This document shows, piece after piece, positions 12,998 to 48,354 of a stretch of 64,000 nucleotides of DNA. The stretch is taken from the NCBI GenBank assembly GCA_964643995.1, contig CAZXUJ010000001.1:69622-133621 (forward strand), in the 5' to 3' direction. The DNA is from an uncultured Candidatus Saccharibacteria bacterium. GTDB lineage: Bacteria > Patescibacteriota > WWE3 > UBA101185 > UBA10185. The number at the start of each line of letters is the position of its first letter. The stretch's first letter is position 1. The position numbers and the translations under genes were made by a program. The notes beneath the pieces were generated by a model, which was given only the letters and a program-made list of their open reading frames with translations, was not told the origin of the DNA and searched no databases.

Positions 12998-13868
12998 TTT
13001 CTGGCGTAGGTACAGGCTGCGTTGGCATAGGCGGGTTAGGCGGTAAGGGGGTTGGAATTGGAGTTGGGGGGCTTACGGGTTCCGGGGCTATCACTGGCAC
13101 TTCAGCCGCAGTTTCAATCACCAAAGATTCTCCGCGTTTTGTAGGTACCGACTGTTCTAGGACGGCTTTCTGATCACCCACAACTACGGACTCAACCTTA
13201 CCATCAAAAATCTTAACCACACGTTTTGCATACTTTATATATTCAAGGTCGTGGGTAACCATCAAGACCGTTTTACCGCTCTCATTAAGGCTACTTAGGA
13301 GTTGCATTAGGTTTTTACCGGATTCAAAGTCGAGGTTACCTGTAGGCTCATCAGCAATTATAATCTCAGGGTCCGTAACAAGGGCGCGTGCTAAGGCTAC
13401 TTTCTGCTGTTGACCTCCTGAGAGCTCAGTTGGAAAATAATTGACCCAGTTGCTCATTCCCATATTTAGTATTGAATGCCAAGCTTTTTTAATTGCCTCA
13501 CCTTTTTCTACACCTAGTAGTGACAAAGGAAAAGCTACATTTTCAACAACACTTAATGACTTAACCCAGTTAGGTTGTTGATAAACCATCCCTACATGCT
13601 TCTTACGGAAAGAGGATCTAGCATCTTCGTTCGGGAGTTCATATAGACTGACTCCTAAACATGTAACAGACCCAACGGATGGAACTTCCAAGCCGAGGAG
13701 CATATGTAAAAGTGTAGATTTTCCAGAACCGGAAGGACCAATGATAACTGTGAAATCACCCTTATTAACTTCAAAACTCATACCTTTGATAACTGGAATA
13801 TGTTGATTCCCTACCTTATAAGATTTTTCAAGGTTCTCAACCTTTATTACAACATTGGTTTCAGCCAT
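12945..13868 (-). CDS. ABC transporter ATP-binding protein (MacB/LolD-like) with a proline-rich C-terminal tail
   Basis: Walker A GPSGSGKST, signature LSGGQQQKVALARAL, Walker B IIIADEPTGNLD. The C-terminal tail is PEPVSPPTPIPTPLPPNPPMPTQPVPTP. The start overlaps the stop of the giant gene by 1 nt. Confidence 0.9.
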   Translation of the reverse strand: MAETNVVIKVENLEKSYKVGNQHIPVIKGMSFEVNKGDFTVIIGPSGSGKSTLLHMLLGLEVPSVGSVTCLGVSLYELPNEDARSSFRKKHVGMVYQQPNWVKSLSVVENVAFPLSLLGVEKGEAIKKAWHSILNMGMSNWVNYFPTELSGGQQQKVALARALVTDPEIIIADEPTGNLDFESGKNLMQLLSSLNESGKTVLMVTHDLEYIKYAKRVVKIFDGKVESVVVGDQKAVLEQSVPTKRGESLVIETAAEVPVIAPEPVSPPTPIPTPLPPNPPMPTQPVPTPEIGPKKKQPRFFSKKANN

Positions 13869-16800
13869 TATTTAAGCCCTCCCAAGAAACCAAAGACCTG
13901 ACTCAAGTTGGTTATAACAAGATTAAGAGCATTATCAGAAGCTTTAGGCGTGATGGTAACAGTATCAACAGAGTTTCCAACATTATTGGCTTTGTCGTTG
14001 GAAATTGCCCTCAGATGGTAAACCTTTGACGGATTTAGTCCAGATATTACTACCGCATGATTAAATGTTAAATTACTATCTTCTTGGCTTTTCTGTGAAT
14101 AGGTTGATCCAGTACCCTCGCCAAATTCGACTTGAGATGTAGCAGGCTCGTCGGTGTCCCAGCTTATGACAAGTTGCGCTGTCGCTTCTTTATCTTGGGA
14201 TACAACAACACTTCCCTCAATACTCAAGTTTGATATCGCTGGGGGTCTGGTGTCTGTTGCAGTCGTGATACGTTGTATATCGCTAGAAGCCTCATTACCA
14301 GCTTTATCACGTCCCTTAACCGTCAACAAATAAGTTGTTTCTGGTAGTAACCCTTTAATCTGGAGACGATGTTGTCCCTTAACCAATTCAACATTTACTT
14401 CATCTCTAGCATCAGCAGTATTACCCTCAGGGTAGTAAGTTAAAATCGACGAGACCTCTGTATTGGTATTCCATGTCACTAAAACTGACGGTTGTGCGGC
14501 TCCCCTCACCTGCTGAATTCTCACATTGTCGATTTTTGGACGAGGAAGAGTTTCAAAGGTTAATACACTTCCATCATACTCATCATCCTCAGGATCAAGG
14601 GTATTGATCTTATAATAGTATTTTGTACCGTCGGTAAGATTTTCAAGAGTAGTATTATATGTGGTTTCTGAGGTCGATGTGGCAAGTTCTAACAAACTGC
14701 CAGAAGCTCCAGATAAGCCATAATAAATTTTTACCGATGTAGCATCGGTAACTGTATATTGTAGGGTAACTCTATCGATGCCTACATACTTTGCCGAAGG
14801 ATCTGTAACCGTAGGAGCAGGAGCTGTTTCGAAAGTGAATTCATCACTTAGTCCGGTGTTACCATCTTCATCCGTCCATTTGGCAATCGCATAGTAACTG
14901 GTACCTGGACTTAGATTTGAAAGTGCTATCTCATGGGCAGTGACTTGATCAGAGTTCGAAGGCTCTTCATCAAAATAATCCCCCGAACTAGTACCATATT
15001 GTATTTTTGAATCACTTACGCGATCGGTTGACCAAGTGATTGTAGCTTTCTTCGTAGTGATTCCAGTAACCTCAGGTTCTGAATCAAGCGTAGCAGCTTC
15101 GGTAAATCTACCTGTAGGAAGTAACTCGACAGAGCTGGTAAATGCACCGCAATTATCAACACTATCGCAGGCACGGACTTTATAATAGTATGTTATCTCT
15201 TCAAGACTAGTATCAATGTAGGCTGAACCGGTAGTGGTAGCTAAGGAGCTATAAGTTGAGTCATCCTCTGAACGATAAATCTCGTAATAATCTATACCTG
15301 AACCTACATCAGTTGGAGCAGTCCAAGAAAGTGCTAATCTCCAAGATTCAGTACTTTTTATTGAGACATCAGAAATCTCTAAGTTAAGAGGAATACCTGG
15401 AGCTGAAGTGTTAGCTGTAAATGAAACGCTTGTGTAAGAACCATAATTGATAGCACTACCATAATCACTGCCATTTCTGGCCGCCAAATAAAGTGTGTTT
15501 AATCCGACTTGAGTAGCAAAGGAACTTGCCGAAAGAGTAGTATCTCCAGCACTTGTATAAGTACAAGTGGAGGAAGAAGGTAAAGTGTTAACTGTATAAC
15601 AGTAAGTCAAAGCATCTTCAGTACCAGAGTAACTTGATGGCGCGTCCCAAGAAAAGGCGAATGAATTGGATGTGTTTGTACTCGGTGTAACTTGTAAAAA
15701 TTGTGGTGCTGAAGGACCATCACCTGCATAATAATAGGTTGCTTGCAGTGGTGTTGCTGAGTAATTGCCTGCCGTATCCACAACCCTTAGATAAAATGTG
15801 TTTGCGTCAGTTTGATATGCCGCATCGTCAATTTCGATTGAAGTTAGCGCTGTAGTAGCAGACCAATCGCTTAGTGCACCAGATGCGGCACCAGTTTTGT
15901 ATTGATAACCAGCTACACCAGACCCACTGTCGGAGGCTATACCCTCACCACTTGAAGGCCATGAAAACGTAAACGAATTTGAGGCGGCATAACCAGATGG
16001 TGTAACAGTAACCGTGCTTGGGTTACTTGGGGAAGTATTGTCAAATTTGTAAATAAAGGCGGCATATGTCGTACTTACATTTTGTGCATTGTCTTTGGCT
16101 TGTATTCTTAAATAATAGGTACTTCCACTTACGAGACTACTTGCGGTATATGTGGAGCCGGCTTGAAATGAACCTGCCGTTGACGGAACTGCAGAGCTAT
16201 CAGTTCCAAAATATACAAAATATCCAGCTAGCCCAGCTCCTGCATCACTCGCGCCGCTCCAAGAGAAATAGGGTCCTGTATGAGTGTACCAAGTGTTTGT
16301 CGTAAGACTAGATCCACCAAATGCACTAAGTGCCGTGATGCTACTTGGGGCGGTAGGGTTAGTTGTATCAGAATTTGCCTCAACTATTACCTCATTGACA
16401 GTGACTTGTTGAGTGCCGTCACCATCTAAAATTGCTTGCCATTTTATACCAGACGAGGATATTGGGAGAGTGGGAATATTTGTGTTTATATCAGCTTCCG
16501 TATTTGCCTGACTAGTAGAGGCAGATGTTTCCCACGAGTCACTATCCCAGTATTTCCATGTGCTACCACCGTCGGTTGAAAGTCTATACATTACAGTACC
16601 ACCATTTAGTGTTTCTGTAGTGACAAAACCTGCAAAACTGGCAATATCCTCAGTAAATACAGCAGTAGTGTTTGAAACAGTTTGTGCCGACGCAGAATAC
16701 GGTGTCGTTGTAAAGGATGATCTGGCAGACGTGCTGATTCTAAGTTCGTCCAGTGTCCCATTAAAGTAACCTTGGGCAACACCACTGGAAGTACTTCCAT

Positions 16801-19744
16801 ATGTCGTACCCACTAACAAGCTTTTTGTAGTATTTGGTATAGATAAAGAGGCACTACCTGAATTATCAAGAACACCATCAATGTATATTTTCATCGTGCT
16901 ACCGTCATAAGTTGCTGCTATGTGGTGCCAACTGGTGTTTTGAGTCGCCGTAGTAGACTGTAGATATCCATTGTTTCCATAAGACCATACTGCCGCATCA
17001 ACATTTGCGGACTCGCCCAAACCTGCAAATAGTTTTCCTTGAAAAACAGCTAACGAGTGTACACTTTCGGACGCATTAATATCCCAGCTTGAGTTTATTG
17101 CATCTCCTCCGATCTGACTCCATGATGAACCGTCATATCTCCAAACTTCTGACTCTCCAGCAGTTGTTCCAACGCCAGCAAAGACATAACCATTGTATGA
17201 AGCTAAAGAGCGCACCCTTTCGTAGGTTCCTGAGGTCCAACTACTATTTAAATCGTCACCACCTACTTGTGACCAAGTACTACCATTCCATTTATATACA
17301 TCAGCGTCTCCCGCCGTAGTACCTAAACCTACATACAGTTCATTGTTGTGAATTATCATTGAATCCACCTGCTCGTGAAGTGAAGCCCAGCTAGAATTGG
17401 TACTGTCGCCACCTATTTTAGTCCATGCGGTACCATTCCAACTGTAAACCTCAGCGTCACCAGCACTACTACCAATACCAGCGTATAGAAGGTTATTGTA
17501 CCCAACCATGCTATGAACTGTTTCATAGTTAGTGTTCCAGCTCGAGTTAGTTCCGTCACCTCCGATTTTTGTCCATGCCGTACCGTTCCAACGCCAAACT
17601 TCAGCCTCGGTGGCAGTAAGTCCCAAGCCAGCATACAAATAACCATCGTAGGCCGCCATACTCTGGACGTTTTCAAAACCGGTTGTCCATCCTGAATTTA
17701 AACTATCACCACCAACTTGAGTCCATGTTGAGCCATTGTATCGCCAAACCTCGGCATCGTTAGCCGTAGATCCTAAACCGGCATATAGATTTCCACCATA
17801 ACTCTGAAGTGAAAAAACTGTTTCAAACGTACCCGCGGCCCAGCTACTATTGACTCCTTGTCCACCAACAATGGTCCAAGTGCTGCCATCGTACTCAAGT
17901 ACCATAGCATTACCCGCTACTGTATAACCCGTACCAGCATAAAGTTTGCCGTTGTGGGTTTTCAATGCTTCTACACTTTGAAGGTTGTAAAAACCCCAGC
18001 TTTTATTAATGTAGTTGCCACCAAACCTTGTCCATGCACTTCCGTTCCAACTCCACATTTCACCACTTGCACCCGTACCTGTAAGACCTGCATATAAGGT
18101 ACTACCTGAATATAAAAGAGTGTTAACATGGGTATGCGTGTTTGTAAAACCAGAGTTTATTGCATCACCACCAATTTTGGTCCAAGTCGTTCCATTCCAA
18201 CTCCATACCTCGTTATCACCCGCGGTATTACCCAAACCAGCATAAACAGTTGATCCGGTACTTGCCAAACTGTAAACAGCCTCGTATGAACTAGAATCCC
18301 AGCTCGAGTTCACAGTATCGCCGCCAATTTTTGACCATGTCCCACTCGTAAAACGCCAAACTTCGGCCTCACCTGCGGTTGTTCCAATACCTGCATATAA
18401 ATCTCCGCTTAGGTAAGTCATGCTTAGAACATATTCATAGGTGGTATTCCAGCTTGAATTTGTTCCATCACCACCAATTTTTGTCCACGCACTACCGTTC
18501 CAACGCCAAATTTCAGCGTCGGTTGCACTAGCACCTAACCCTGCATAAACATTAGTACCGTCATTTATAAGGGAATATACCTGTTCAAACCCAGTGGTCC
18601 AACCTGAATTCAAGCTATCTCCACCTATTTGAGTCCAGGCACTGCCATTCCAACGCCATACCTCAGCATCGTTAGCTGTAGTACCAATGCCCGCATACAA
18701 GTTTGACCCCATGTAAGTTAAACTAGCTACTTGCTCATATGTTCCAACTGCCCAACTCGAATTAACAGCATCACCGCCGATTTTCGTCCAATCAGTGCAG
18801 TTAGACGTAGTATCGCAACTCCAGACCTCAGCATCACCTGCAGTAGTACCAAGTCCTGCGTAGAGCAAAGTTCCGTTGGTAGCCAAGGATAAAACACTTT
18901 CAAAAGTTTGGTCCGCCCAGCTAGAATTATCGCCAGCACCACCTATTTGAGACCAAACTGTACCATCCCATTTCCAAACCTCAGCATCACCAACAGCGTT
19001 ACCTAACCCAACATAGATGTCTGAACCTACAGTAACCGAGGAATGTACAGCAAACTTACCGTTTAGGTCCCAGCTGTTGTCAATGTCTATACCAGCATTT
19101 TGCGTCCACTCTGTTGCACTAGAACTGGCTAACTCATATGTAATTTTTCCGGTCTCATTGTCGTAGTAAAGTTTATAGTCACCCTTGTCTACTATTCCTT
19201 GAGCCTGATCCGCGCTACCTGCTGATAAACTTGTGCCAAACTTAGTCCAAGCTTCAATAGAATTGACTTGCCCTAGGGAGATTGATGCAGAATCAGTTAC
19301 GGATATTTTGGAAGTGTCTCCATCAAGGGTTAGGCCATTGTTTAGATTACCAGTAACCCATGATGGAGCTGTGGCCGTACCATCATTAGCATTGCTAGAG
19401 GAGTCATCGACTGTAGTACCAGAAGATTCGTCAAGGTGAAAAAGTAATGCAGTGTCTGAGTCAGACGTATAGTTTTGAACCTTTAAGCGTGCAGTACTGC
19501 TTGATACCTCAACTGCGGTTGAATCGGATAAAGTGTAATCTCCAGCACTTGCAAAATCCCAAGTATAATCAACATCCCCCGCAGCAAATATATGCTGAAT
19601 GTATGAAGAAAATAACAAAGCAGATGTAAGAATAAAAACGACAAACACATGAAAAACATGTTTGCTTTTTTTGATACGCTTTGTAAATACTCCGTTGTAT
19701 ATTTGTTTCAAATGTGTCACATATTTGGGCATAGCTTCTCTCAT
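13868..19744 (-). CDS. Giant (1958 aa) secreted/surface protein: signal-anchor, LamG/ConA-like domain, 14 beta-propeller-like repeats, second LamG-like domain, array of fibronectin-III-like domains
   Basis: N-terminal hydrophobic anchor. Laminin-G-like pattern ALLFHLDESSGTTVDDSS and later LDELRISTSARS. Fourteen repeats of about 55 aa of the form LYAGLG.TAGDAEVW.WNG..W..IGGD..NSSW. C-terminal repeated beta-sandwich modules (FN3-like, Y.Y.V.A.D..GN.S). The true start may be M5 (MPKYV) at 19732. Confidence 0.8.
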   Translation of the reverse strand: MREAMPKYVTHLKQIYNGVFTKRIKKSKHVFHVFVVFILTSALLFSSYIQHIFAAGDVDYTWDFASAGDYTLSDSTAVEVSSSTARLKVQNYTSDSDTALLFHLDESSGTTVDDSSSNANDGTATAPSWVTGNLNNGLTLDGDTSKISVTDSASISLGQVNSIEAWTKFGTSLSAGSADQAQGIVDKGDYKLYYDNETGKITYELASSSATEWTQNAGIDIDNSWDLNGKFAVHSSVTVGSDIYVGLGNAVGDAEVWKWDGTVWSQIGGAGDNSSWADQTFESVLSLATNGTLLYAGLGTTAGDAEVWSCDTTSNCTDWTKIGGDAVNSSWAVGTYEQVASLTYMGSNLYAGIGTTANDAEVWRWNGSAWTQIGGDSLNSGWTTGFEQVYSLINDGTNVYAGLGASATDAEIWRWNGSAWTKIGGDGTNSSWNTTYEYVLSMTYLSGDLYAGIGTTAGEAEVWRFTSGTWSKIGGDTVNSSWDSSSYEAVYSLASTGSTVYAGLGNTAGDNEVWSWNGTTWTKIGGDAINSGFTNTHTHVNTLLYSGSTLYAGLTGTGASGEMWSWNGSAWTRFGGNYINKSWGFYNLQSVEALKTHNGKLYAGTGYTVAGNAMVLEYDGSTWTIVGGQGVNSSWAAGTFETVFSLQSYGGNLYAGLGSTANDAEVWRYNGSTWTQVGGDSLNSGWTTGFENVQSMAAYDGYLYAGLGLTATEAEVWRWNGTAWTKIGGDGTNSSWNTNYETVHSMVGYNNLLYAGIGSSAGDAEVYSWNGTAWTKIGGDSTNSSWASLHEQVDSMIIHNNELYVGLGTTAGDADVYKWNGSTWSQVGGDDLNSSWTSGTYERVRSLASYNGYVFAGVGTTAGESEVWRYDGSSWSQIGGDAINSSWDINASESVHSLAVFQGKLFAGLGESANVDAAVWSYGNNGYLQSTTATQNTSWHHIAATYDGSTMKIYIDGVLDNSGSASLSIPNTTKSLLVGTTYGSTSSGVAQGYFNGTLDELRISTSARSSFTTTPYSASAQTVSNTTAVFTEDIASFAGFVTTETLNGGTVMYRLSTDGGSTWKYWDSDSWETSASTSQANTEADINTNIPTLPISSSGIKWQAILDGDGTQQVTVNEVIVEANSDTTNPTAPSSITALSAFGGSSLTTNTWYTHTGPYFSWSGASDAGAGLAGYFVYFGTDSSAVPSTAGSFQAGSTYTASSLVSGSTYYLRIQAKDNAQNVSTTYAAFIYKFDNTSPSNPSTVTVTPSGYAASNSFTFSWPSSGEGIASDSGSGVAGYQYKTGAASGALSDWSATTALTSIEIDDAAYQTDANTFYLRVVDTAGNYSATPLQATYYYAGDGPSAPQFLQVTPSTNTSNSFAFSWDAPSSYSGTEDALTYCYTVNTLPSSSTCTYTSAGDTTLSASSFATQVGLNTLYLAARNGSDYGSAINYGSYTSVSFTANTSAPGIPLNLEISDVSIKSTESWRLALSWTAPTDVGSGIDYYEIYRSEDDSTYSSLATTTGSAYIDTSLEEITYYYKVRACDSVDNCGAFTSSVELLPTGRFTEAATLDSEPEVTGITTKKATITWSTDRVSDSKIQYGTSSGDYFDEEPSNSDQVTAHEIALSNLSPGTSYYAIAKWTDEDGNTGLSDEFTFETAPAPTVTDPSAKYVGIDRVTLQYTVTDATSVKIYYGLSGASGSLLELATSTSETTYNTTLENLTDGTKYYYKINTLDPEDDEYDGSVLTFETLPRPKIDNVRIQQVRGAAQPSVLVTWNTNTEVSSILTYYPEGNTADARDEVNVELVKGQHRLQIKGLLPETTYLLTVKGRDKAGNEASSDIQRITTATDTRPPAISNLSIEGSVVVSQDKEATAQLVISWDTDEPATSQVEFGEGTGSTYSQKSQEDSNLTFNHAVVISGLNPSKVYHLRAISNDKANNVGNSVDTVTITPKASDNALNLVITNLSQVFGFLGGLK
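17030..19045 (-). repeat. Intragenic tandem repeats (about 165 nt x 14) encoding the propeller blades of the giant protein
   Basis: Recurrent DNA words (e.g. ccaacgccaaa(c/t)ttcagc at about 17590, 18499 and 18650) and 14 protein-level YAGLG...AEVW.WNG...IGGD...NSSW units. Confidence 0.6.
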
Positions 19745-34676: not shown

Positions 34677-35051
34677 ATGAGTGTAAATAACCTAATTGTA
34701 ATACTTTTAGTAATAATGCTTATTGGGATAGTTTTTTTATCAACTAAAAGAAGAATTGAATTGACGGTTCTAGTTTCAATGTTAACAGGGATTACTATGC
34801 TTTACATTGTGAAATTACCGTTTCTTATTAATACTATCAGTATTGTATTTATACTCTTACTACTTATCTGGGCGTTTAAAATTTCTCGAGATATTATCTA
34901 CATCGGAGCTATATTTTTTATATTGTGTAGTGCTGTTTTTCTTCAGTTACAATTTGAACTACCTGCTAAATTTTCGGGGACACTCAGTTTCTTTTTACTG
35001 TGTATTGGTGTAGCTAAGGACATACTTTATGAAAAAACTTTTTCTAAGTAG
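34677..35051 (+). CDS. Small 4-TM membrane protein
   Basis: 124 aa and strongly hydrophobic. Lies within the operon. Confidence 0.4.
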   Translation: MSVNNLIVILLVIMLIGIVFLSTKRRIELTVLVSMLTGITMLYIVKLPFLINTISIVFILLLLIWAFKISRDIIYIGAIFFILCSAVFLQLQFELPAKFSGTLSFFLLCIGVAKDILYEKTFSK

Positions 35052-37116
35052 CATTCTCTGCCTTGCGATGCTATCAATAGGATTTTTCAAAACAACAGCT
35101 GCTGATAAGACAGGCTATTTTGCAAGGCTTCTATCCAGCTGGGATATAGATATATATACGCTCAATGAAAATGTAGAAACTAAGAAATGGGAACTACCAA
35201 AAGACAACGAAGACGACTTTCTACTCCTAACCACCAATCAAATGACACTGATTGGAATGAATCTAGATATGCTACTTTCATACAATAAAGTGATATTAGT
35301 ATGTGACACTAGCGTGGAGTTAAGTAAAGAACTTGCGTGTAGTTTTGATGGTATTACTACCACTTTTCAAAAAACAGAGTTGGCATCGGACAATAGTAAT
35401 AGTATTTTGAACATATTTCTTGGAAACACCAATTTGATAGTTATCCCAGAAGCCGGATTTGTACTACCTAAAAATACCGCTGAAACTACTGCCTATTTTG
35501 AAGCACTTGCTATCTCAAGAGAAAATAAGGCACAAAACAGTGAGGAGAACACTAGGACCGATACTGCAAAGCCTCAATCTGTAGTTATCGAAAACTCAGA
35601 ATTGATAGGTTATTTAGTATTTTTATTACTATTCAATTTTATAGTCGTAATGCCGATAAAAAAATTAAGCAGTACTGGCCGAGTAACATTACGAAATATG
35701 TACACTCAGCAACTTGGCGAACTTAAGAGATTCGTTGATATGTACGAGCCTTTTTCAAAATATTTAGTTACGATGGGGATCTGTGTAAACATCATTGTAG
35801 GAGGTGTTTTTCTGCTGAACAACGGGTTAAGGCTATTACTAGATGCGGCCAAAACACTTCTAGCAACACCAACATTAGCAGACATTGTTGGTTTGGAAAT
35901 CTTCAGTTCCCGATATGCACTAGTATTAGTAATAGTAAATATTCTGTTGCTTGGCGTTTTAAGCCCCATGGTTATTGATAGAGTAATCGCAAACCTAAAC
36001 ATAAAGATGCTGTTACCACAGCACAAAATAAAAGATGATATAGCCAAGTGGATAGTGATAGTTTTCGGTATAGCGGGAATTATGATTGCTTCTACTGGGA
36101 CAATTGCTGAAACACATCATTTATTAACTGCAGTTTTACTGGTTATAACCTATATACTTTTTGTGTCACATGAGTTTAAATTCACGGTTAAAGAAAAATT
36201 ACTGGCTACATGTGTTATAGCAACTGTGGCAATTGTTGTACCAAGTTATAGTTACTACTCTCAGGAGATTTCGATACATATAACTGAAGAAAAATTGTTC
36301 AGTGACTCTGAGAGAATAGTTGTATTGCCATACAAAAGAGTTATAACTAAAAACACAAAAATAAAAGAGTTCACTACAGGAATTGATTTTCCAATCTTTA
36401 TTGAACACCAACTTATATACCACCCAAGTTACCCGAACATTGTCAACAAAAATATTGAAAGCATTGATCTAACAAATAACTACATGGTAGTAACTAAAGG
36501 TAAAAAAGACTACATCAACACCTTGCTTTCATTTCCAATATTACTAAAACACGTTGAGGCAAATGGTGTAAGTGAGTTCTTTTATACCGAAACAAACTTT
36601 GCACAAACAGATACCGTAGCAGTCAAAATGACAATAGATTGTTCAAAAGATACGTCAGCAAAGGAAATATATCTAGAAAAGTATAGGTTATCTACGGACC
36701 CCGAACAATTTAACTTACTTATTTTTCCAGGATGCACACCAATGCAAAAGGAACTAACATATACAGCTCCAATTGATACAAGATATATGCAACAACCTGG
36801 TATCTTTCAAATTCAAAACTTCTCAAAAGTTAGATTTAGTAAAATAGTGCTCCAAGTCAATGGCGTTGATGTGGAACCAAAGTATATTAAGACTCCAAAC
36901 GACTACCAACAACTTGGCACAGGACAAAATAAGCTAGACTCCACAGAACTGTATGTTTATTCCCAAGAAACTGAGGATGATACAAAGTATAAAAACACGA
37001 CCAAGGACGTAAACATAGGTTCACTCATAAATACTGCCCTAGAAACTATGAATATAGAAAATAATTTCGTAATGTGGTCAAGTGCAGAAAATGCAATAAT
37101 TAAAAACGTACAGTAA
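35029..37116 (+). CDS. Hypothetical secreted/membrane protein (signal peptide, central 6-TM block, C-terminal domain)
   Basis: 695 aa. The signal peptide is MKKLFLSSILCLAMLSIGFF, and the hydrophobic block spans about aa 190-400. Confidence 0.45.
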   Translation: MKKLFLSSILCLAMLSIGFFKTTAADKTGYFARLLSSWDIDIYTLNENVETKKWELPKDNEDDFLLLTTNQMTLIGMNLDMLLSYNKVILVCDTSVELSKELACSFDGITTTFQKTELASDNSNSILNIFLGNTNLIVIPEAGFVLPKNTAETTAYFEALAISRENKAQNSEENTRTDTAKPQSVVIENSELIGYLVFLLLFNFIVVMPIKKLSSTGRVTLRNMYTQQLGELKRFVDMYEPFSKYLVTMGICVNIIVGGVFLLNNGLRLLLDAAKTLLATPTLADIVGLEIFSSRYALVLVIVNILLLGVLSPMVIDRVIANLNIKMLLPQHKIKDDIAKWIVIVFGIAGIMIASTGTIAETHHLLTAVLLVITYILFVSHEFKFTVKEKLLATCVIATVAIVVPSYSYYSQEISIHITEEKLFSDSERIVVLPYKRVITKNTKIKEFTTGIDFPIFIEHQLIYHPSYPNIVNKNIESIDLTNNYMVVTKGKKDYINTLLSFPILLKHVEANGVSEFFYTETNFAQTDTVAVKMTIDCSKDTSAKEIYLEKYRLSTDPEQFNLLIFPGCTPMQKELTYTAPIDTRYMQQPGIFQIQNFSKVRFSKIVLQVNGVDVEPKYIKTPNDYQQLGTGQNKLDSTELYVYSQETEDDTKYKNTTKDVNIGSLINTALETMNIENNFVMWSSAENAIIKNVQ

Positions 37117-41046: not shown

Positions 41047-42492
41047 CTAATTTGTCCTAAGATAGCGCCAATTTGCGAAATCTAGGTATCTGTCTTGCAC
41101 GGTAAAGGTATACTTCTCCCCTATCCCATCAATAAACCTACTTACATAATAGTTCTTAAATGGATGATACAAAAAGATTGCTGGGATCTGTTCCACAATA
41201 ACTTTTTGGAATTCGTTGTAATGAATAACTATTTCATCTGGATCTAGAGCATTGCGACCTTCCTCTAGTGCCCGATCAGCACGAACATGTTCAAAGTTTG
41301 AGAGATTCAACCCTGGGGCTTCTTTTTGAGTTGAGTGCCAATTAGCATACCGCCCAGGGTCACGGCTAGTTTCTTGCCCAAAAAGCAAAATCTCATAATC
41401 GCGAGACACTATAACGTCTTGGACAAAAGTGTCTGGTTTTCGCACATCAATTTTGAGGTCAATGCCAAGTTTTTCTTTCCAAATTTGTCTTATGCTTTCT
41501 GCAACTTCACGATGTGTCTCAATGTCTGGAATCGTTAATGTCAGATCAAGTTCTAAATCTTCTGCTAGTTTGGGGTCAAATGGATTAAAATCCAATTCCT
41601 GATTCGTAAGAATACTCCTGCTTATTGGACCTTCGACTAAGATACCCCGCTCATAAATTAACTGCTCTTTGTTAATTACTTTTTGGAGTTTGTCCCTGAG
41701 AGTAATGTCCTTGATAGAATCTCGATCTAAATTAAAGAAAAGTGCAAAGTAGACGCCTTGGATTGGAAATTTGTGGTTTTTGAAATTTTCTAGGTCAACC
41801 TTCTTCTCGGTCATAAATGCATCTATCTCACCAAGCTTAGCTGCAGTTACTAACTCATCGTCGTTGCTGTAGTACCTAAAGATCATTTTTTTTATTGGAT
41901 GCTCGGGGTTGTTGTTACGAAGAATAATATCCTTAACAATAGGACCACTATGTTCCACACGAATAACTGTAAACCCACCGCTAGATACTGGTAACAAAGG
42001 GGAATAATTCTCCTGGGAATTATCTTTCATAATCCCTACAGTTAGCAGGTTAAGAAATGAAGAAAGTTTATTTGGGAGAATAAACCGAACTGTCTGATCG
42101 TCCACCTTGTCTGTACCAACATACTGAAGGTCATCAAGTTTAAAAGATGTATAGATAATATCATCTGCAGTTATTTTTGATCCGTCCGACCAATATTGGT
42201 CTGGTTTTATGGTTACTGTATAAACAAGCCCATCATCAGACTCCGCCCAGCTTTCTGCGAGATCTGGTACTAGGTTACCGAAGTTATCATATTTAAAAAG
42301 CCCACGATAAATAAGACCGGAAATAGTTTGATCTGTTTGTGTTTTTGCCAGGTTTGGCAAAAAAGATACAGGTTGGCCAGTGACGCCCTCTACAAACTGA
42401 GGTGTCGGAGAAATAGTAAGCAGAAAGGAACTTATAAAGAATCCTAATTGGTACAAAATATTCATATTTGTAGGTATTTTATCAGTTGGCAA
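41047..42492 (-). CDS. ABC transporter substrate-binding protein, family 5 (oligopeptide/nickel type), orphan
   Basis: Signal peptide, then GLIYRGLFKYDNFGNLVPDLAESWAESDDGLVYTVTIKPDQYWSDGSKITADDIIYTSF (SBP_bac_5 N-terminal signature). No permease or ATPase genes are adjacent. Confidence 0.8.
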   Translation of the reverse strand: MPTDKIPTNMNILYQLGFFISSFLLTISPTPQFVEGVTGQPVSFLPNLAKTQTDQTISGLIYRGLFKYDNFGNLVPDLAESWAESDDGLVYTVTIKPDQYWSDGSKITADDIIYTSFKLDDLQYVGTDKVDDQTVRFILPNKLSSFLNLLTVGIMKDNSQENYSPLLPVSSGGFTVIRVEHSGPIVKDIILRNNNPEHPIKKMIFRYYSNDDELVTAAKLGEIDAFMTEKKVDLENFKNHKFPIQGVYFALFFNLDRDSIKDITLRDKLQKVINKEQLIYERGILVEGPISRSILTNQELDFNPFDPKLAEDLELDLTLTIPDIETHREVAESIRQIWKEKLGIDLKIDVRKPDTFVQDVIVSRDYEILLFGQETSRDPGRYANWHSTQKEAPGLNLSNFEHVRADRALEEGRNALDPDEIVIHYNEFQKVIVEQIPAIFLYHPFKNYYVSRFIDGIGEKYTFTVQDRYLDFANWRYLRTN

Positions 42493-42586
42493 GAATTGAG
42501 CAAGTTGACAAATCTACCAACACTAGAGTTGGTATTTTAGTTGGTTTATTGATAAAATAGGATAGCTTTTAGGTATGATTTTAGAC

Positions 42587-42661
42587 GGCCCCATCGTCTA
42601 ATGGTCAGGACGCCAGGTTTTCATCCTGGTAATCGGGGTTCGATTCCCCGTGGGGTCACCA
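42587..42661 (+). tRNA. tRNA-Glu (anticodon TTC)
   Basis: Acceptor GGCCCCA/UGGGGUC, anticodon loop UUUUCAU, T-arm CGGGG-UUCGAUU-CCCCG, 3' CCA encoded. Confidence 0.9.
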
Positions 42662-42768
42662 ATGAAATTTATCCCAATACGTTGGTCGAATCATCTAATG
42701 ATTTTTTGCCACGCGCTCCTCTTTTTATATTTAAAAAGTCACAAAATTTATAAAAGTGCGATATAATA

Positions 42769-43824
42769 ATGACAGTGAACAAGAAATTATTTCGTCCTCC
42801 CATAAATCTCACTCTTTTAAGGAAATTGATTATTGTTTTTGCCTTCTTGTTCATTTGTTTTCTTACCTTTTTTGTTTATCAGGATCTTTTTATTCGTAAA
42901 AATTGTGTTGGTCCCTGGGGCAGCCAAGCTTGTCGGGGTTTTGAAGCTAATAATATATGTTTCGGTTATCGTTATCCGGTTTGTGGTTCACCAAATCTTC
43001 CTTATTTGCTTACTCAAGAAAAAAGTATAGTACCGTTATATATTGGTGAAACAGAAAAAGGTTGCAGAGAATTTTTTGAGGCAAACTGCCCTATCCACCT
43101 TGGATGCCAGATGATGTGTACGGACTCATATCCATCACATTGTTCTTGTGGAGGTAGATTTTTTAACACTATCAATTTGATTCCAGCTGAAAAATGCATC
43201 CTAGAAACATATGAAACAGAAAACATTCCTAATATTGCAAAAAATGAAATGAAATATGGGATATATTTACATGAAGCATTTTTGCCAACAGAGAACATAA
43301 GTGAGGCTGCCTCCTGTCTAGAGCGCTATCCTAATAAAGAATTTTATGCATATCTCCAATTGACCGAAGCACCTACTGAGGATATTGAAAAACTCTTTGA
43401 TGAACATGGTATGTTTTTACACTTTGCAGCAAGAAACCTATTGTATACAATAAAATTCCCTGCCGAAACAAAGCTGTCAAAAGAAATAAAAGATCACATA
43501 AGGTGGATTGGTGTTTTGGATGTGAAACACAAAGTATCTGAAGACTTGTGGTATGGCACTGTTGACGAATCGGCCTTGACTGAAAATGGTGATGTAAAAT
43601 TGATCGTGAGTTTTTGGGCAGAAGAAAAAGAAGATGGTGCGCGTAAAATTCTGGATAAATATAATGCTTCAGTTGAATCATTCTCTGTTCGCGAAATCAA
43701 GCAAGGTATTAGGTATATAAGTACGCAAATTACAATGAATCCAATTAATTTGCGTGGGTTAGCCTCTGAAAATACAGTAATCGGCATAAGCACAGTTTCT
43801 CCCCCACCAGAAATCTCTAACTAA
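42769..43824 (+). CDS. Hypothetical cysteine-rich secreted protein
   Basis: N-terminal signal/TM. Cys-rich module of about 100 aa (CVGPWGSQAC..C..C.., CREFFEANCPIHLGCQMMC...CSCGG), then a 200-aa domain. The start is uncertain because a TATAAT hexamer lies immediately 5' of the annotated ATG. Confidence 0.5.
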   Translation: MTVNKKLFRPPINLTLLRKLIIVFAFLFICFLTFFVYQDLFIRKNCVGPWGSQACRGFEANNICFGYRYPVCGSPNLPYLLTQEKSIVPLYIGETEKGCREFFEANCPIHLGCQMMCTDSYPSHCSCGGRFFNTINLIPAEKCILETYETENIPNIAKNEMKYGIYLHEAFLPTENISEAASCLERYPNKEFYAYLQLTEAPTEDIEKLFDEHGMFLHFAARNLLYTIKFPAETKLSKEIKDHIRWIGVLDVKHKVSEDLWYGTVDESALTENGDVKLIVSFWAEEKEDGARKILDKYNASVESFSVREIKQGIRYISTQITMNPINLRGLASENTVIGISTVSPPPEISN

Positions 43825-43859
43825 CAATCATTTTAATAATTTTCTTTTGCTTTTATAAC

Positions 43860-44396
43860 TTAAACTGAAATGTAGGTATTAAACAACGGTTGCGCCACCT
43901 CTAATGATTCAAACTGTTGAGCCTTGGGCTCACCCATAAAGAATGAGGAGGTATCACTACCTCCTTTTTTCTTGACAAATCGCACTAATTTAGGTGTTCC
44001 AAAAGTCAATTCATCATAGGTTGGAGGTTGCTCAAAAAGGGGTACTTGACAATAGTCTGACAGTTGGTTTGCAGACCATGCTTTTACTACTTTCCACTTT
44101 ACATCCCCTATCTGAACGTCTTCATTAAGTTTTACTGTTTTAACTGAATCCTTAGTCTCTTTTACTTTTTGTGAATTTGTATCGTTGTTGGAAGTATTTT
44201 TAGAATCTGATCCAGTACTTGTCTTACTTGATGATCCACCAGCTGAAGCGATGATACCAATAATAAACAAGACCAATATTCCTGTGATAATTGGGTGTTT
44301 TGCAAAGAATCCTCTTTGATCTTTTTTGCAGTATGGGAATATCTTAGCTTTTTGATCAATGTCAGTTTGACAATATTTACATTTTTTAGTCGCCAC
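43860..44396 (-). CDS. Zn-ribbon / TM / extracellular-domain protein
   Basis: N-terminal CKYCQ...YCKK zinc ribbon, one TM (ITGILVLFIIGIIASAGG), an S/T/N-rich linker and a beta-rich C-terminal domain. Confidence 0.5.
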   Translation of the reverse strand: MATKKCKYCQTDIDQKAKIFPYCKKDQRGFFAKHPIITGILVLFIIGIIASAGGSSSKTSTGSDSKNTSNNDTNSQKVKETKDSVKTVKLNEDVQIGDVKWKVVKAWSANQLSDYCQVPLFEQPPTYDELTFGTPKLVRFVKKKGGSDTSSFFMGEPKAQQFESLEVAQPLFNTYISV

Positions 44397-44590
44397 TCAT
44401 ATCACCCCCTTTGAAAATTTGAAATTATTCTTCTGTTCAATGGATGACGCAATAATTTGATTAAGGCAACTAAATAGACCGCTTCGGTATGAGAGACCGT
44501 TTCAAAATTGGCGCTTTTTATGAGTAGTTTTGTTTGTTGTTAAAGGTAGAAATACTGTTTTCTCAAAGTAAAAGAGCATAAAATCCCTCA

Positions 44591-45486
44591 ATGTTTAAAA
44601 AAATCCTAAATGTAAAATATGCAACCTGAATAATAATGTCATTAGACGTGGCCTTCGAAATGGAAAGATTAGATATAAATGTAACTCCTGTAATGCTTGG
44701 TTTTTTGTAGATAAATCCAAAGCTGTTAGCAATAAGAAAATATTAACTCATCATATCGATGGCACACCTTTTAGAGCTCTTGCCGAACAAAATAAATCTT
44801 CGGCAACAACAGTGTATCGTAAAAACCTTTCTGCTTTAAAACAACTGATTCATTGTGCCGATATAACTCGTAAATATTGTAATAGATATTGTGGAATATT
44901 AGTTGTTGACGGTAAATATCTTGCTGTCAGAAATTATGACCGTAAAATACCAGTGCTTTACGGTATTGATTACCTCTCCCACGATATCCCAAAATATAAG
45001 CCTTTTATGGCTGAAATAAACCAACTCTTTAAAAAGAAATTATCATACGGCGTTTTTGTAAACCAAGCTAAATCAATTTATGAAAAATATAAAGCTGATC
45101 CAAAATGTAAGTCAGTGATGCTTGATATGCGAGATAAATTACCACTTCTTCTTGCACATCTTCAAACTAAACACATCCCAAGAACAACTAATCTAATCGA
45201 ATGTTTTAACTCTCATCTTCAAGGTCGTTTAAAAACAATAAAAGGTTTTAAATCTTTTAAACATGCTGACCTTTGGTTAAATGCATACTTCATTCGTCGT
45301 AGATTTAAAAAATTTAAGGATTGTAAAGGTCAATTTAAATGCCTAAATGGTAGAAGATCAATCGATATTGTTGTAAACACAGAACTAGTTGGCCTTGGTA
45401 TAGTTTCATTACTAGCTATAGAAAAAGACCGCGAGTCTCTAAACCCATTGGTTAAAAAAACCCACGATTTAGTTGGCATGCTTTAA
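44591..45486 (+). mobile_element. IS1/IS1595-like transposase gene (Zn-ribbon plus DDE domain) needing a -1 shift at an A7 run
   Basis: After a 4-codon leader (ATG 44591, MFKK) and a -1 shift in AAAAAAA (44597-44603), the frame encodes PKCKICNLNNNVIRRGLRNGKIRYKCNSCNAWF (CxxC...CxxC ribbon), then a DDE region (VVDGKY...GIDYLSHD...TTNLIECFNSHLQGRLKTIKGFKSFK). No in-frame start codon exists for the long frame. Terminal inverted repeats were not confidently identified. Confidence 0.65.
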
Positions 45487-46041
45487 ATAAATCACAATAC
45501 CCAAAGAAAGTATTAAAAAGTTTTTGAGAATATACTGTCCAACAAGCGTTGGCACTAAAAAATTCTCCCAAGCTATTGCCGGTAAAAAGACTAATGGACC
45601 AAAAGTAGTCACTATGTGAACCACAGTAAGTGATAAGACTATTTTCTCCACTTTTGGGATGAGCCACAGTATTCCTATAAAAACCTCGAAATATCCGAGA
45701 ATTAGTATGAAAACGTCTATAGACATAAATGGAAAGGTTTTATCAAGCAGACTCGCTACCAACTCATGGGCAGGACTATATCCAATCAGTTTTAGACTAC
45801 CGAACCAAAAATAAACTATAAAAATAGAAATACGGGAAAACCAGATATAGTATTTCTCAAAAAAAGCATGCATGAAATAACGATAGTCCTTCTTGATTAT
45901 AAATTCAACTAGATCTATTCTTATGGCGAAGTTCCAATTAAATTTAGTTGTATGATGTACACTTATTTTATCTTTAGTATTAGGTATAGTTTTGATTTCT
46001 CTTGTGATTTCTACTTCCCTGCTATTCTCAAAACGAGTCAA
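45469..46041 (-). CDS. Hypothetical 5-TM membrane protein
   Basis: 190 aa and hydrophobic. Its 3' end overlaps the transposase 3' end by 18 nt. Confidence 0.45.
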   Translation of the reverse strand: MTRFENSREVEITREIKTIPNTKDKISVHHTTKFNWNFAIRIDLVEFIIKKDYRYFMHAFFEKYYIWFSRISIFIVYFWFGSLKLIGYSPAHELVASLLDKTFPFMSIDVFILILGYFEVFIGILWLIPKVEKIVLSLTVVHIVTTFGPLVFLPAIAWENFLVPTLVGQYILKNFLILSLGIVIYLKHAN

Positions 46042-46583
46042 TTGCCTTCCAAACGGAATTAAGGAGATATCTTGAACTTGTAGAGCTGATAAGCACTAGG
46101 AGACTTAAAAGCAAACGACATAGTGTTGATATAGTTACAAATGCCGAAATAATACAGGCATGCGTAAAGAGTTGGGGCACTAATTGTTATTCAAGGTGAA
46201 GACAGTAGTGAACAGATATCTGAGGGGGGAATAATTTTTGATAAGATCGTTTCAGGAGAGATTCTTTCGAGTATATTCGAACTTAGCACAGAAGAACATG
46301 ATGGTGCTGTGATAATTGAGCAGGATAGAATATTGAAATTTGGTGCGCAGTTACCCCTATCAATCAATTTTAGAGAAATAGGAAAGCATGGCACATTCAC
46401 AGTGCGGGGCGTGGACTAGCAGAAAAGTCTGATGCACCAGTGATTATAGTCTCAGAGGAAAAGTGTTTTATAAGTATTGCGTATAGAGGAAAACTTAAAA
46501 GACTTACAAATTACGATCAACTAGGACAAATTCTAGATAAAAAACTCAGGAATCAAGGAGAGGTCCTATGTCTTATAAAATAG
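46008..46583 (+). pseudogene. Diadenylate cyclase (CdaA/DacA-like DAC domain) pseudogene, 5'-truncated with at least 2 frameshifts
   Basis: Three frames spliced together: ...DIVTNAEIIQACVKS | GALIVIQGED...EEHDGAVIIEQDRILKFGAQLPLS...REIGKHG | HIHSAGRGLAEKSDAPVIIVSEEKCFISIAYRGKL. These match the DAC motifs GALIVI, HDGAVII, LPLS, (T)RH.AA.G.SE..DA and VVSEE.G.IS. There is no N-terminal TM region and no start codon. Confidence 0.6.
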
Positions 46584-46621
46584 CCGCAGTTTTTTTGGCA
46601 ATTATACTCAAATTTATATTA

Positions 46622-47515
46622 TTAAAAGCTCAGGAGATCAATTAATACAGTTCTAAGGTCCTTCTGAGTTGTTTTAAGTAAATTGGACTCCACATCATAC
46701 TCATATTCCGCAGGGATAGTGGTAGGAAATAAACCAAAGAGTTTTTCAATCTTCGTACCCATAAGAGTATATTTAACGGAATCCCCATTAACATTTACTG
46801 AGATTTCATCGACAGAGTCGAGCTTTTCCGAGGAAATTGTCTCACGTACAACTTTATCTGGAGTAGTTGTTAGATCCACAAGGTTTGTATCTGTTTCAAT
46901 AAAAAACTTGCCCTCCTCCTCGACTATTCTGTTTGTGGAACGCATCTTAACAGGCACACTATGTGTTACAACTTTTCTAGTAGGTTGTTCTTTCTTCACC
47001 TCTTCAGTTACCTCAACAGGCAAATCATTGACCAAGGCATCTAGATCGGCTGTGGTATCCTCACCACCGTCGTCTGGTGTAGGTAACAAAGAGTCTATTT
47101 CATTTAAATACTTTGCATCTTTGGAGGGTTGAGGGGTTTCTTTAAAATAAGTTTTGGCTGCTTCATTTGCTGCTTCCTTAGGATCGATACCCTTCTCAAC
47201 TACCACAACATTATCTGGTATATCCTTTACAGTTTCAGTCTCACGAAGCAAATTACCAGCCAGGTCATAGGTTCTTATTTTTATGTAAATCTTTCCATCA
47301 CGATATTCCTTTCGCATAACAGCTTTTTTTTTGCCTTCCTGCATGGTATTTTCAAAAACAGACCCCTCCTCAATATAAGTCTCCCCTGCTACTGCGATTG
47401 GGGATTCGCGCAAAAACGAGCCTGCTGCGACTACAAAAGAGATAAATAATCCCAAAGCAATAATCGGTAAATGAAGTGAGTAGAACGTGATTAATTTTGT
47501 TTTGGGCATATTCAA
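46622..47515 (-). CDS. Hypothetical secreted protein (N-terminal signal-anchor)
   Basis: 297 aa. A TM/signal (LITFYSLHLPIIALGLFISFVVAAG) precedes an acidic, Thr/Glu-rich extracellular region. Confidence 0.5.
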   Translation of the reverse strand: MNMPKTKLITFYSLHLPIIALGLFISFVVAAGSFLRESPIAVAGETYIEEGSVFENTMQEGKKKAVMRKEYRDGKIYIKIRTYDLAGNLLRETETVKDIPDNVVVVEKGIDPKEAANEAAKTYFKETPQPSKDAKYLNEIDSLLPTPDDGGEDTTADLDALVNDLPVEVTEEVKKEQPTRKVVTHSVPVKMRSTNRIVEEEGKFFIETDTNLVDLTTTPDKVVRETISSEKLDSVDEISVNVNGDSVKYTLMGTKIEKLFGLFPTTIPAEYEYDVESNLLKTTQKDLRTVLIDLLSF

Positions 47516-47580
47516 ATTGTATCAGCATCAATATAGAGTTACAATTTATTTACTATGGGAAAAGGCAGTGAGACATTACA

Positions 47581-48354
47581 TTGGTACCCGAACAAAGTAC
47601 AGAGCCAGTTACCGAGGAAGATGTAGATTGGTTAAGGGATCTAGTGGCTCGCTATGGTACAGATGATGACAATCCAACAGAAGATAGCGAGAAAATTGTA
47701 CAAAACATTTTGGCGGATACAGATGACCGAACTCCTGAAGAAATTATTGCACTGCAATTCGAGATGGAGGAAGCTGCAAGAGAAAGAAAACCTGGCAAAG
47801 GTGGAACCAAACCAAACACAAAACAAAAAAATGCCAGAGCAGCCCAGTTAAGAGAGGAACAGATAAGGAACTCGCGCGAAAACAGAAATGAAGAAACAAT
47901 ACAAACTTTGCAAACCCAACTAGAGGGAAGTGAACTTTTCAAACTTGTTAAAAATGATGATCCCGACGCCGACTTCTTCGTAGAAACGTACGCGCATTGG
48001 GTATGCGTATCGATTGAGAATCACGGCAATCCAGTGTTGACACAAGGCGATATCTCAATCGAGAATTTTAAGAGAGCCAGTGGTCCTGGTGGACAGAATA
48101 TGCAAAAAGGCGAATCAGCACATCGTGCAGGGCATGTCTGGTCTGGGATTGTAGTCGAAGCTAGCAATCGAAGTAGTGAACAAAGTGAGAGAGAAGCCAA
48201 AGAAAAGTTGGAGGTAAAACTTAAAGAAAATATTGCAACTTGGGAAAATTATCTAGGCACAGCGAAAATAGATATGAAACCTAACGAAGGTATCTGGGAT
48301 GCTAGGGAAAGAGCAATAAGAACTCAAGTATACAAAATGGCACGGGCAACATAA
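47581..48354 (+). CDS. Protein with a C-terminal RF-1-type GGQ peptidyl-tRNA hydrolase domain and a novel acidic N-terminal region
   Basis: TTG start. The C-terminal half contains RASGPGGQNMQKGESAHRAGHVWSGIVVEASNRSSEQSEREAKEKLEVKL, which aligns with the release-factor GGQ core (SGPGGQHVNKT-SAVR.TH.PTGIVV.CQ.ERSQ..N...A...L). The PxT/SPF codon-reader domains and the basic ArfB-type tail are absent. Confidence 0.65.
   Translation: MVPEQSTEPVTEEDVDWLRDLVARYGTDDDNPTEDSEKIVQNILADTDDRTPEEIIALQFEMEEAARERKPGKGGTKPNTKQKNARAAQLREEQIRNSRENRNEETIQTLQTQLEGSELFKLVKNDDPDADFFVETYAHWVCVSIENHGNPVLTQGDISIENFKRASGPGGQNMQKGESAHRAGHVWSGIVVEASNRSSEQSEREAKEKLEVKLKENIATWENYLGTAKIDMKPNEGIWDARERAIRTQVYKMARAT

Follow-up and report, generated by a model that had tools for sequence, protein, structure and literature searches.

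The locus and its reading frames

The window analyzed here is a stretch of 64,000 nucleotides from contig CAZXUJ010000001.1 of an uncultured Candidatus Saccharibacteria bacterium, and the subject of this report is a transposase reading frame on its plus strand, at 44591–45486, which lies in the remnant of an insertion sequence (IS) of a distant IS256-like lineage. The only start codon of this frame is out of register with the transposase. The ATG is followed by a single TTT codon and seven adenines, and ribosomes that do not shift would stop after a 12-codon peptide, while the transposase is encoded in the –1 frame, which opens inside the A-run. The layout recurs in most relatives of the element, and we consider it probable that they share a conserved start that depends on slippage of some kind, present here in a copy that is now dead. 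The features of the start region are as follows:

44579–44584, plus strand: –10-like hexamer TAAAAT, a putative promoter element, followed by CCCTCA (6 nt) and then the ATG
44591–44593, plus strand: start codon ATG, read from the sequence, followed by TTT and the A7 run
44597–44603, plus strand: A7 slippery run, at +7 to +13 counted from the A of the ATG
44591–44629, plus strand: 0-frame mini open reading frame (ORF) MFKKILNVKYAT, consisting of the ATG and 11 further codons, closed by TGA at 44627–44629
44599–45486, plus strand: –1 (transposase) frame of 295 codons, shut upstream by TAA at 44596–44598 and ending with TAA at 45484–45486
44611–44691, plus strand: N-terminal CxxC...CxxC zinc ribbon (CKIC...CNSC), identified from the frame reading and weak NCBIfam matches

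The run lies in the context CCCTCAATGTTT-A(n)-TCCTAAATGT, and the TAA that closes the –1 frame upstream overlaps TTT-A. According to the ORF listing, there is no ATG, GTG or TTG in the –1 frame 5′ of the GTG at 44812, and the first residues of that frame read KNPKCKIC...KCNSC. A product beginning MFKKNPKC... results from one added A, or from a –1 slip past the second Lys codon. Direct reading thus agreed with the first-pass annotation of this DNA, which had described the ATG(44591)-TTT-A7 start, whose 0 frame is stopped after 12 codons, the –1 frame of ~295 codons that opens inside the run with no start codon before the zinc ribbon, and the CxxC...CxxC ribbon in that frame. A genetic code in which UGA is recoded was also considered; with TGA read as sense, the 0 frame would gain no more than 28 codons before meeting a TAG.

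The start region in the closest relatives

Related loci are denoted by L numbers and database proteins by P numbers. The sequence ATG-TTT-A7-TCC-TAA-ATG is identical in the window, L001, L002 and L066, while L069 and L070 start with ATG-ACT-A7-TCC-TAA-ATG. Protein identity to the window copy is 86–88% for L066 and, in the database search, 63% for L069 and 60% for L070; L002 and L001 are 89% and 75% identical to it, and the protein range given for the five together is 58–88%. In a four-way DNA alignment of the window, L001, L002 and L066 the A7 run is invariant, and these three relatives have 0-frame mini-ORFs of equal length and near-equal sequence. The pairwise ratio of non-synonymous to synonymous substitution rates (dN/dS) in the –1 frame of the four closest copies is 0.05–0.13, at a synonymous divergence (dS) of 0.6–1.3, which argues that the –1 frame has been translated through a long divergence without loss of the out-of-frame start. 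The first-pass annotation had named an ATG in frame at A6 or A8 in other copies as the sign of an indel, and no member of the window’s subclade showed one.

Family-wide survey of start regions

Species-representative genomes were scanned at the DNA level with a search keyed on the C-terminal motifs of the transposase, which is therefore blind to the start. The scan yielded 63 loci, nearly all from metagenome-assembled genomes of Patescibacteria; a scan of viral contigs returned no relatives. Most loci are on contigs named NODE_ or k141_, which points to short-read assemblers. When the scan loci were combined with other fetched loci, 56 had an available N-terminus, and in 51 of these the transposase frame was out of register with an ATG (GTG in two cases) located 0–3 nt 5′ of an A5–A8 run. 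In none of these 51 does an ATG, GTG or TTG occur in frame ahead of the first Cys, and in 20 the transposase frame is closed by a stop at the ATG or beyond it. The 45 unique sequences comprised 25 that need a –1 shift (mostly A6 or A7), 16 that need +1 (mostly A8, as in L005) and four that were scored as in frame, one of which (L014) was spurious. Clustering at 70% identity gave 35 clusters, with 30 out of frame, four in frame and one mixed (binomial p of 0.003 versus a one-third expectation).

Run length differs between close relatives. L011 (A7, –1) and L017 (A6, +1) share 95% protein identity and are in opposite out-of-frame (OFF) states, which indicates that run length drifts between two OFF states. 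L071 (A5, in frame) falls in the same cluster at 70% identity as L031 (A7, out of frame). Two groups of nearly identical copies were found: L024–L028 are 99.9–100% identical over ~1.19 kb with differing flanks, and L055–L057 are 99.9–100% identical over 1.21 kb. All members of both groups are out of frame, and 9-bp target duplications are clear in two or more of L024–L028. By this comparison of copies, there has been recent transposition of elements in the OFF state.

The out-of-frame start is also visible in protein databases. Among 120 database homologues, 67 begin 3′ of the first CxxC and thus do not include it. Others, including P0021, P0031, P0057, P0062 and P0063, have called N-termini such as MWLILLSFRHEKRVY... 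that traverse the out-of-frame ATG-A6; the “...FRHEKR” extensions (“..HEK..”) correspond to xATGAAAAAA read in the wrong register. The N-terminal extensions of these P0021-type proteins are probably annotation artefacts.

The protein family and the complete element

The conceptual protein of the window has 298 aa. A Pfam search with this protein found no transposase domain; the lack of a match to PF00872 is explained by the deletion of its core (see below). Its ribbon gave weak matches to the NCBIfam models IS256_Zn_var, IS256_N_4Cys and IS1_IS1595_Zn, with IS256_Zn_var reaching 36.5 bits on the window protein versus a cut-off of 150. Two cysteines of the ribbon, C31 and C34 in the numbering of the conceptual protein, do not vary across the family alignment, in which several called homologues start 3′ of the first CxxC. 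A search of a database of 5.8 billion protein sequences recovered 676 homologues, mostly of 330–350 aa, the majority with PF00872 (Transposase_mut); Parcubacteria is the named source of one of them.

Intact relatives gave PF00872 scores of 28.8 (L066 conceptual protein), 37.1 (P0009) and 21.2 (P0013), with a gathering cut-off of 21. Against the IS256-type models of NCBIfam they scored 42–68 bits, where the cut-offs are 150–300 (at best 63–68 versus 150), and both the intact relatives and the window protein stayed below the equivalog cut-offs of NF033543, NF048019 and NF033544. Judged by these scores, the lineage is distant from the IS256 equivalogs and is not an equivalog itself. With the IS256/Mutator superfamily (including NF048019 IS256_Zn_var and NF033544 IS1249) the intact relatives share a PF00872 score above threshold, a D...D...E triad with QxCxxH and TNxIE(S/C)xNSHL motifs, and the overall plan of ~1.2-kb elements with ~27-bp inverted repeats, 9-bp duplications and an N-terminal 4-Cys ribbon. 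They differ from it in being short (~340 aa), in falling far under the NCBIfam IS256 cut-offs, and in that most members have an out-of-frame start codon. On these comparisons we assign the window element to the Mutator superfamily, within a distant IS256-like lineage whose transposase carries a 4-Cys ribbon at its N-terminus; by the assemblies surveyed, this lineage is common in Patescibacteria, members of the candidate phyla radiation (CPR).

The complete element is represented by L066, which is 1159 bp long, has 27-bp inverted repeats that match at 21 of 27 positions and a 9-bp target duplication (TTTTGTCCC), and encodes an intact conceptual transposase of 344 aa. L025 and L026 likewise have 9-bp duplications. 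The outermost bases of the inverted repeats (GAGACCGTT, GATACCGTT or GACACCGTT) are kept in L025, L026, L055, L068 and the left end in the window, and these conserved ends span subfamilies with just 35–55% protein identity. The conserved tips could serve as a DNA signature for spotting non-autonomous or decayed copies.

Decay of the copy in the window

The copy in the window was compared with its relatives in an alignment with 14 homologues (299–356 aa) and in a DNA comparison with three related elements, from which the internal deletion was called. The features that define its present extent are as follows:

44493–44519, plus strand: left inverted repeat GAGACCGTTTCAAAATTGGCGCTTTTT; similarity to the complete L066 begins exactly here
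44599–45377, plus strand: IS-derived stretch of the transposase frame; homology to relatives ends at 45377
44908–44910, plus strand: GAC, first catalytic Asp, from the alignment
44989–44999, plus strand: junction of a 216-bp in-frame internal deletion, from protein and DNA alignments
45199–45201, plus strand: GAA, catalytic Glu, from the alignment
45378–45486, plus strand: read-through extension into DNA outside the IS, without the native C-terminus, its stop codon or the right inverted repeat

Relative to L066, 216 bp (72 codons) are absent between HDIP and KYKPFM, where L066 has 237 nt and the window copy 21 nt. The lost segment included the “QxCxxH” motif and the nearly invariant Asp of the “LVCDDN” motif, which is the second D of the DDE triad, and the window copy therefore retains only the first Asp and the Glu of the triad. 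In L066, L002 and L001 the corresponding segment is flanked by direct repeats, CC(A/C)ACATA(T/C)AA, which makes a repeat-mediated in-frame event the likely cause of the deletion. No relative matches the window past ~45377, so the ORF reads through into flanking DNA over its final 36 codons; this tail overlaps the 3′ end of a minus-strand ORF at 45469–46041. The description of the product as a complete DDE transposase of ~295 aa, given in the first-pass annotation, was thus not upheld, considering the 72-codon deletion with the second Asp, the lost right end and the absence of a Pfam domain.

The left inverted repeat matches the right ends of L066 and L002 when these are reverse-complemented. 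A search of the window gave this single occurrence, where the chance expectation is 0 matches, and neither a further copy of the element nor a stray inverted repeat was found there. Comparison of copies, which had been proposed as a way to identify the terminal repeats, succeeded in the window for the left end only, and the right repeat was undetectable there. A candidate right repeat at 45414–45439, with a fitting spacing, was rejected, as 14% of shuffled sequences aligned equally well or better. With only the left repeat present, no target duplication was found at the window copy.

Private substitutions in the window copy comprise 24 synonymous and 11 non-synonymous changes, similar to the 29 to 10 of L002. 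The window copy looks to have been constrained for most of its history, with a recent decay, although the ratio of private substitutions yields no independent date for it. From the alignments, the sequence from 44493 to ~45377 is a defective remnant of an IS256-like element of ~1.16 kb, no longer able to make an active enzyme or to be mobilized.

Upstream features and RNA structure

Across the family, a TAnnnT hexamer lies 6–7 nt 5′ of the ATG in 22 of the 45 unique loci, compared to 0–4 loci for any other spacing. This positional peak of a –10-like element across relatives, which is the only source of the idea, suggests that the transcripts of the family are leaderless. The A-run always begins between +4 and +7, counted from the A of the ATG. 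Many members also retain a short palindrome or near-palindrome immediately 5′ of the –10-like box, ~15–35 nt 5′ of the ATG, in several versions:

TTAACTAGTTAA: L005, L050, L053 and L068
TTAACATGTTAA: L037–L040 and L044
TCACTAnGTGA: L008, L010 and L034
TTGACTAGGTGA-like: L003, L006, L009, L013, L022 and L060

The version in the window, TTTTCTCAAAGTAAAAG at ~44557–44573, appears decayed. In the upstream motif, TTGACT is only 8–10 nt from the –10-like box. The palindrome may serve as an operator, bound by the transposase or by a host factor, or may form a piece of an unusual promoter.

The first-pass annotation had also pointed to a possible stimulatory hairpin downstream of the run, and none was seen. 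RNA folding of the sequence 3′ of the run in the window gave z = +1.06, with 176 of 200 shuffled sequences folding at least equally well (pseudoknots being outside the model), and the corresponding segments from 49 family members had a mean z of 0.04, with no stable structure. No Shine-Dalgarno-like stimulator was found 5′ of the run, and Shine-Dalgarno-like 4-mers are sparse upstream. An Rfam scan of the window returned three tRNAs and no match inside the element.

Slippage and alternative explanations

A slippage-dependent start would operate with the sole start codon out of frame and the transposase frame opening inside or just before the A5–A8 run. Only a small share of expression events, those in which one or two A’s are gained or lost, would yield full-length transposase, and the out-of-frame start would probably act as a throttle that keeps transposase output very low. 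As the mechanism we tentatively favor slippage of RNA polymerase (transcriptional slippage) on the A-run, which could by itself restore the frame from either OFF state. The A5–A8 run follows the start codon by 0–3 nt in all 51 out-of-frame loci, whichever frame the transposase is in, which matches the residue-independent conservation expected of transcriptional slippage. In an mRNA that is apparently leaderless, the run would occupy +4 to +13 and thus fall in the initially transcribed region, where slippage would be easiest; at homopolymers transcribed this early, reiterative transcription occurs since the short RNA–DNA hybrid slips easily. A fuller scenario, in which an IS256-like lineage of Patescibacteria makes leaderless mRNA with the AUG deliberately out of frame and depends on RNA polymerase stuttering on A5–A8 for a few in-frame messages, is possible, but we regard it as doubtful. 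Ribosomal slippage on Lys codons or switching of run length in the DNA could do the same job.

Several observations weigh against transcriptional slippage and against an obligatory shift in general. Efficient slippage of RNA polymerase during elongation usually needs runs of 8–9 nt or more, and A5–A7 is shorter. The published account of programmed transcriptional slippage is consistent with such a longer-run requirement (PMC1088944). A consensus scan of 44300–45700 found no plus-strand –35/–10 pair 5′ of the ATG. A few loci (L071 with A5, and L033, L034 and L049) are plainly in frame, so the family as a whole does not require the shift. The loci are phylogenetically related, so that the counts overstate their independence. 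Finally, the contigs that carry L024–L028 and L055–L057 have long-read-like names, and homopolymer lengths can be systematically miscalled in such assemblies.

The most familiar alternative is a programmed –1 ribosomal frameshift of the IS1 (A6C) or IS3 (A6G) type, in which translation would start at the ATG at 44591 and tRNA-Lys would slip back by one base on the A-run. It is an established form of transposase control, it is predicted in the ISMich2 group of the Mutator superfamily (PMC3942029), and all six copies of the window’s subclade require a –1 shift on a run of Lys codons, where the P-site tRNA-Lys on AAA 44600–44602 can re-pair perfectly at 44599–44601. However, about 40% of the out-of-frame loci of the family need +1 instead, and L011 and L017 differ in direction. 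There is no in-register X XXY YYZ heptamer, since the codons are UUU AAA AAA AUC and the heptamer U AAA AAA, leaving only a single-tRNA slip on AAA. Neither a stable structure 3′ of the run, in the window or in 49 relatives, nor a Shine-Dalgarno-like stimulator is visible, and the upstream ORF encodes no functional product, merely a 12-residue peptide. Of the earlier proposal of a programmed –1 shift like that of IS1, the layout that calls for a shift at the A-run is conserved, whereas the IS1-type mechanism was not supported, with both directions in use across the family, no stimulator and only the short 0-frame peptide; we consider ribosomal frameshifting of this kind unlikely. Homopolymer tracts at the 5′ ends of genes are a classic device for phase variation, and the A-run might be such a contingency tract, kept mostly at OFF lengths, with rare ON revertants that make transposase and jump. 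The variation in run length among close relatives (L011 A7 and L017 A6; L071 A5 and L031 A7) is in line with this, but the fresh identical copies L024–L028 and L055–L057 are all OFF, which is unexpected if ON is needed and the transposase prefers to act in cis. Moreover, an ON length occurs in only one of ~41 loci with A6 or longer, and the three diverged copies L037–L039, in a single genome assembled from short reads, are all A7. Phase variation therefore strikes us as improbable.

Two further explanations would remove the need for any recoding. A private homopolymer indel or an assembly error in the window copy, which was the other option given in the first-pass annotation, would be unsurprising as an extra lesion in an element that has decayed elsewhere, through the internal deletion and the loss of its right end. 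It is nonetheless very improbable, since five independent relatives from different metagenomes (L001, L002, L066, L069 and L070) share the ATG-NNN-A7 layout with intact ORFs, under purifying selection among the closest copies, and no protein beginning MFKKNPKC was recovered from the database of 5.8 billion sequences. Non-canonical initiation directly in the transposase frame could be entertained where that frame is open 5′ of the ATG, as it is in ~60% of loci. Against it, the frame is closed at the ATG or beyond it in the window and 19 other loci, where AAA, AAY and CCN are the only codons left ahead of the first Cys. An ATG, GTG or TTG in frame is absent from that stretch in every locus, and the out-of-frame ATG holds a fixed place 4–8 codons before that Cys; we regard initiation of this kind as extremely improbable. 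Transcriptional slippage at the A-run remains our favored, if tentative, reading.

Surroundings of the element

The remnant lies 1.8 kb from a tRNA gene at 42587–42658, and the L066 element is ~110 bp from a tRNA-Gly(GCC) gene (1376–1450 of L066, minus strand). The G+C content is 31–43% across 42000–48000 of the window, which fits a Patescibacteria-like genome. Around the remnant, no NCBIfam match was found for the ORFs at 42769–43824 (plus strand) and 43860–44396, 45469–46041 and 46622–47515 (minus strand), nor for a 695-aa ORF at 35029–37116 (plus strand). The ORF at 43860–44396 encodes 178 aa and opens with a CxxC...CxxC pair of its own, ahead of a hydrophobic stretch. A plus-strand ORF of 257 aa at 47581–48354 gave a weak match to the GGQ domain of release factors (prfH, prfA and prfB models, 31–49 bits, far under the cut-offs); its product is possibly a rescue factor of the ArfB or peptidyl-tRNA-hydrolase type. 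On the minus strand, 13868–19744 is taken up by a very large ORF (1958 aa).

Comparison with known systems and significance

Slippage-controlled synthesis of transposase is textbook knowledge for IS1 and IS3, where it joins two functional ORFs in mid-gene. The present family resembles IS1 InsAB′ (A6C) and IS3 (A6G) in that synthesis of the transposase calls for an A-rich slippery run, which presumably keeps it at a low level. In IS1 and IS3, however, the upstream ORF (InsA or OrfA) is substantial and functional, and the shift fuses two domains in a single direction with the help of stimulators, whereas here a leader of 1–4 codons precedes a shift on which the entire protein depends, the shift may be needed in either direction, and the search for stimulators found none. 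Reiterative transcription at initial homopolymer tracts is known from pyrBI, codBA, upp and pyrG, which share with the present family a homopolymer within the first ~10 nt of the transcript. Those systems, in contrast, regulate expression through nucleotide pools, mostly abort or re-route transcripts, and do not restore a reading frame. We know of no recoding experiments in Patescibacteria.

Programmed transcriptional slippage (Baranov et al. 2005, PMC1088944), including the +1 slippage of IS1447 (PMC6211511), likewise involves A-runs in transposase genes at which RNA polymerase adds or drops a base. The known cases are intragenic and generally have longer runs, whereas the runs here are A5–A8, begin +4 to +7 from the start codon and are probably in leaderless transcripts. 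The nearest precedent within the Mutator superfamily is the ISMich2 group, the only one with a conserved –1 shift predicted, also from comparative data alone (PMC3942029). In that group, which forms a separate clade (p-MULT 4), the shift joins two sizeable ORFs and there is no slippery start. The +1 frameshift of prfB, which encodes release factor 2 (RF2), is similar in that the product comes only from ribosomes that shift after a short initial ORF, as described in a large recoding review (PMC5009743); its shift at codon 26, CUU-UGA site, Shine-Dalgarno stimulator and autoregulation have no counterpart in the present family. The first ~290,000 of the 430,000 characters of the same review do not mention IS256. 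Literature searches that combined IS256 with slippage or frameshifting, Patescibacteria with transposase frameshift, and reiterative transcription with transposase found no report of the arrangement. By analogy, the present family functions like the IS1 and IS3 throttles and the IS genes with transcriptional slippage, and by the tests applied it is a member of neither class. On the comparative evidence, the out-of-frame start at an A-run is a conserved design of the family, unreported as far as the literature search reached.

The window itself has a modest message, since it holds a dead relic between two hypothetical genes. The wider significance is in the layout, a sole start codon that is out of frame and a short A-run at codons 2–4, which has been conserved over deep divergence. 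In the fuller scenario of polymerase stuttering on a leaderless mRNA, which we hold to be doubtful, transposase output would be set by slippage at transcription initiation, possibly in response to ATP pools, and not by ribosomal frameshifting, and the whole protein would hang on an event in the first four codons, a recoding architecture undescribed for any IS family. If the layout itself is read correctly, gene callers would systematically mis-annotate these transposases. The family would offer a compact natural system in Patescibacteria for the study of slippage beside an initiation codon, possibly on leaderless mRNA, and frameshifted transposases in the genomes of these bacteria should not be scored as pseudogenes by default.

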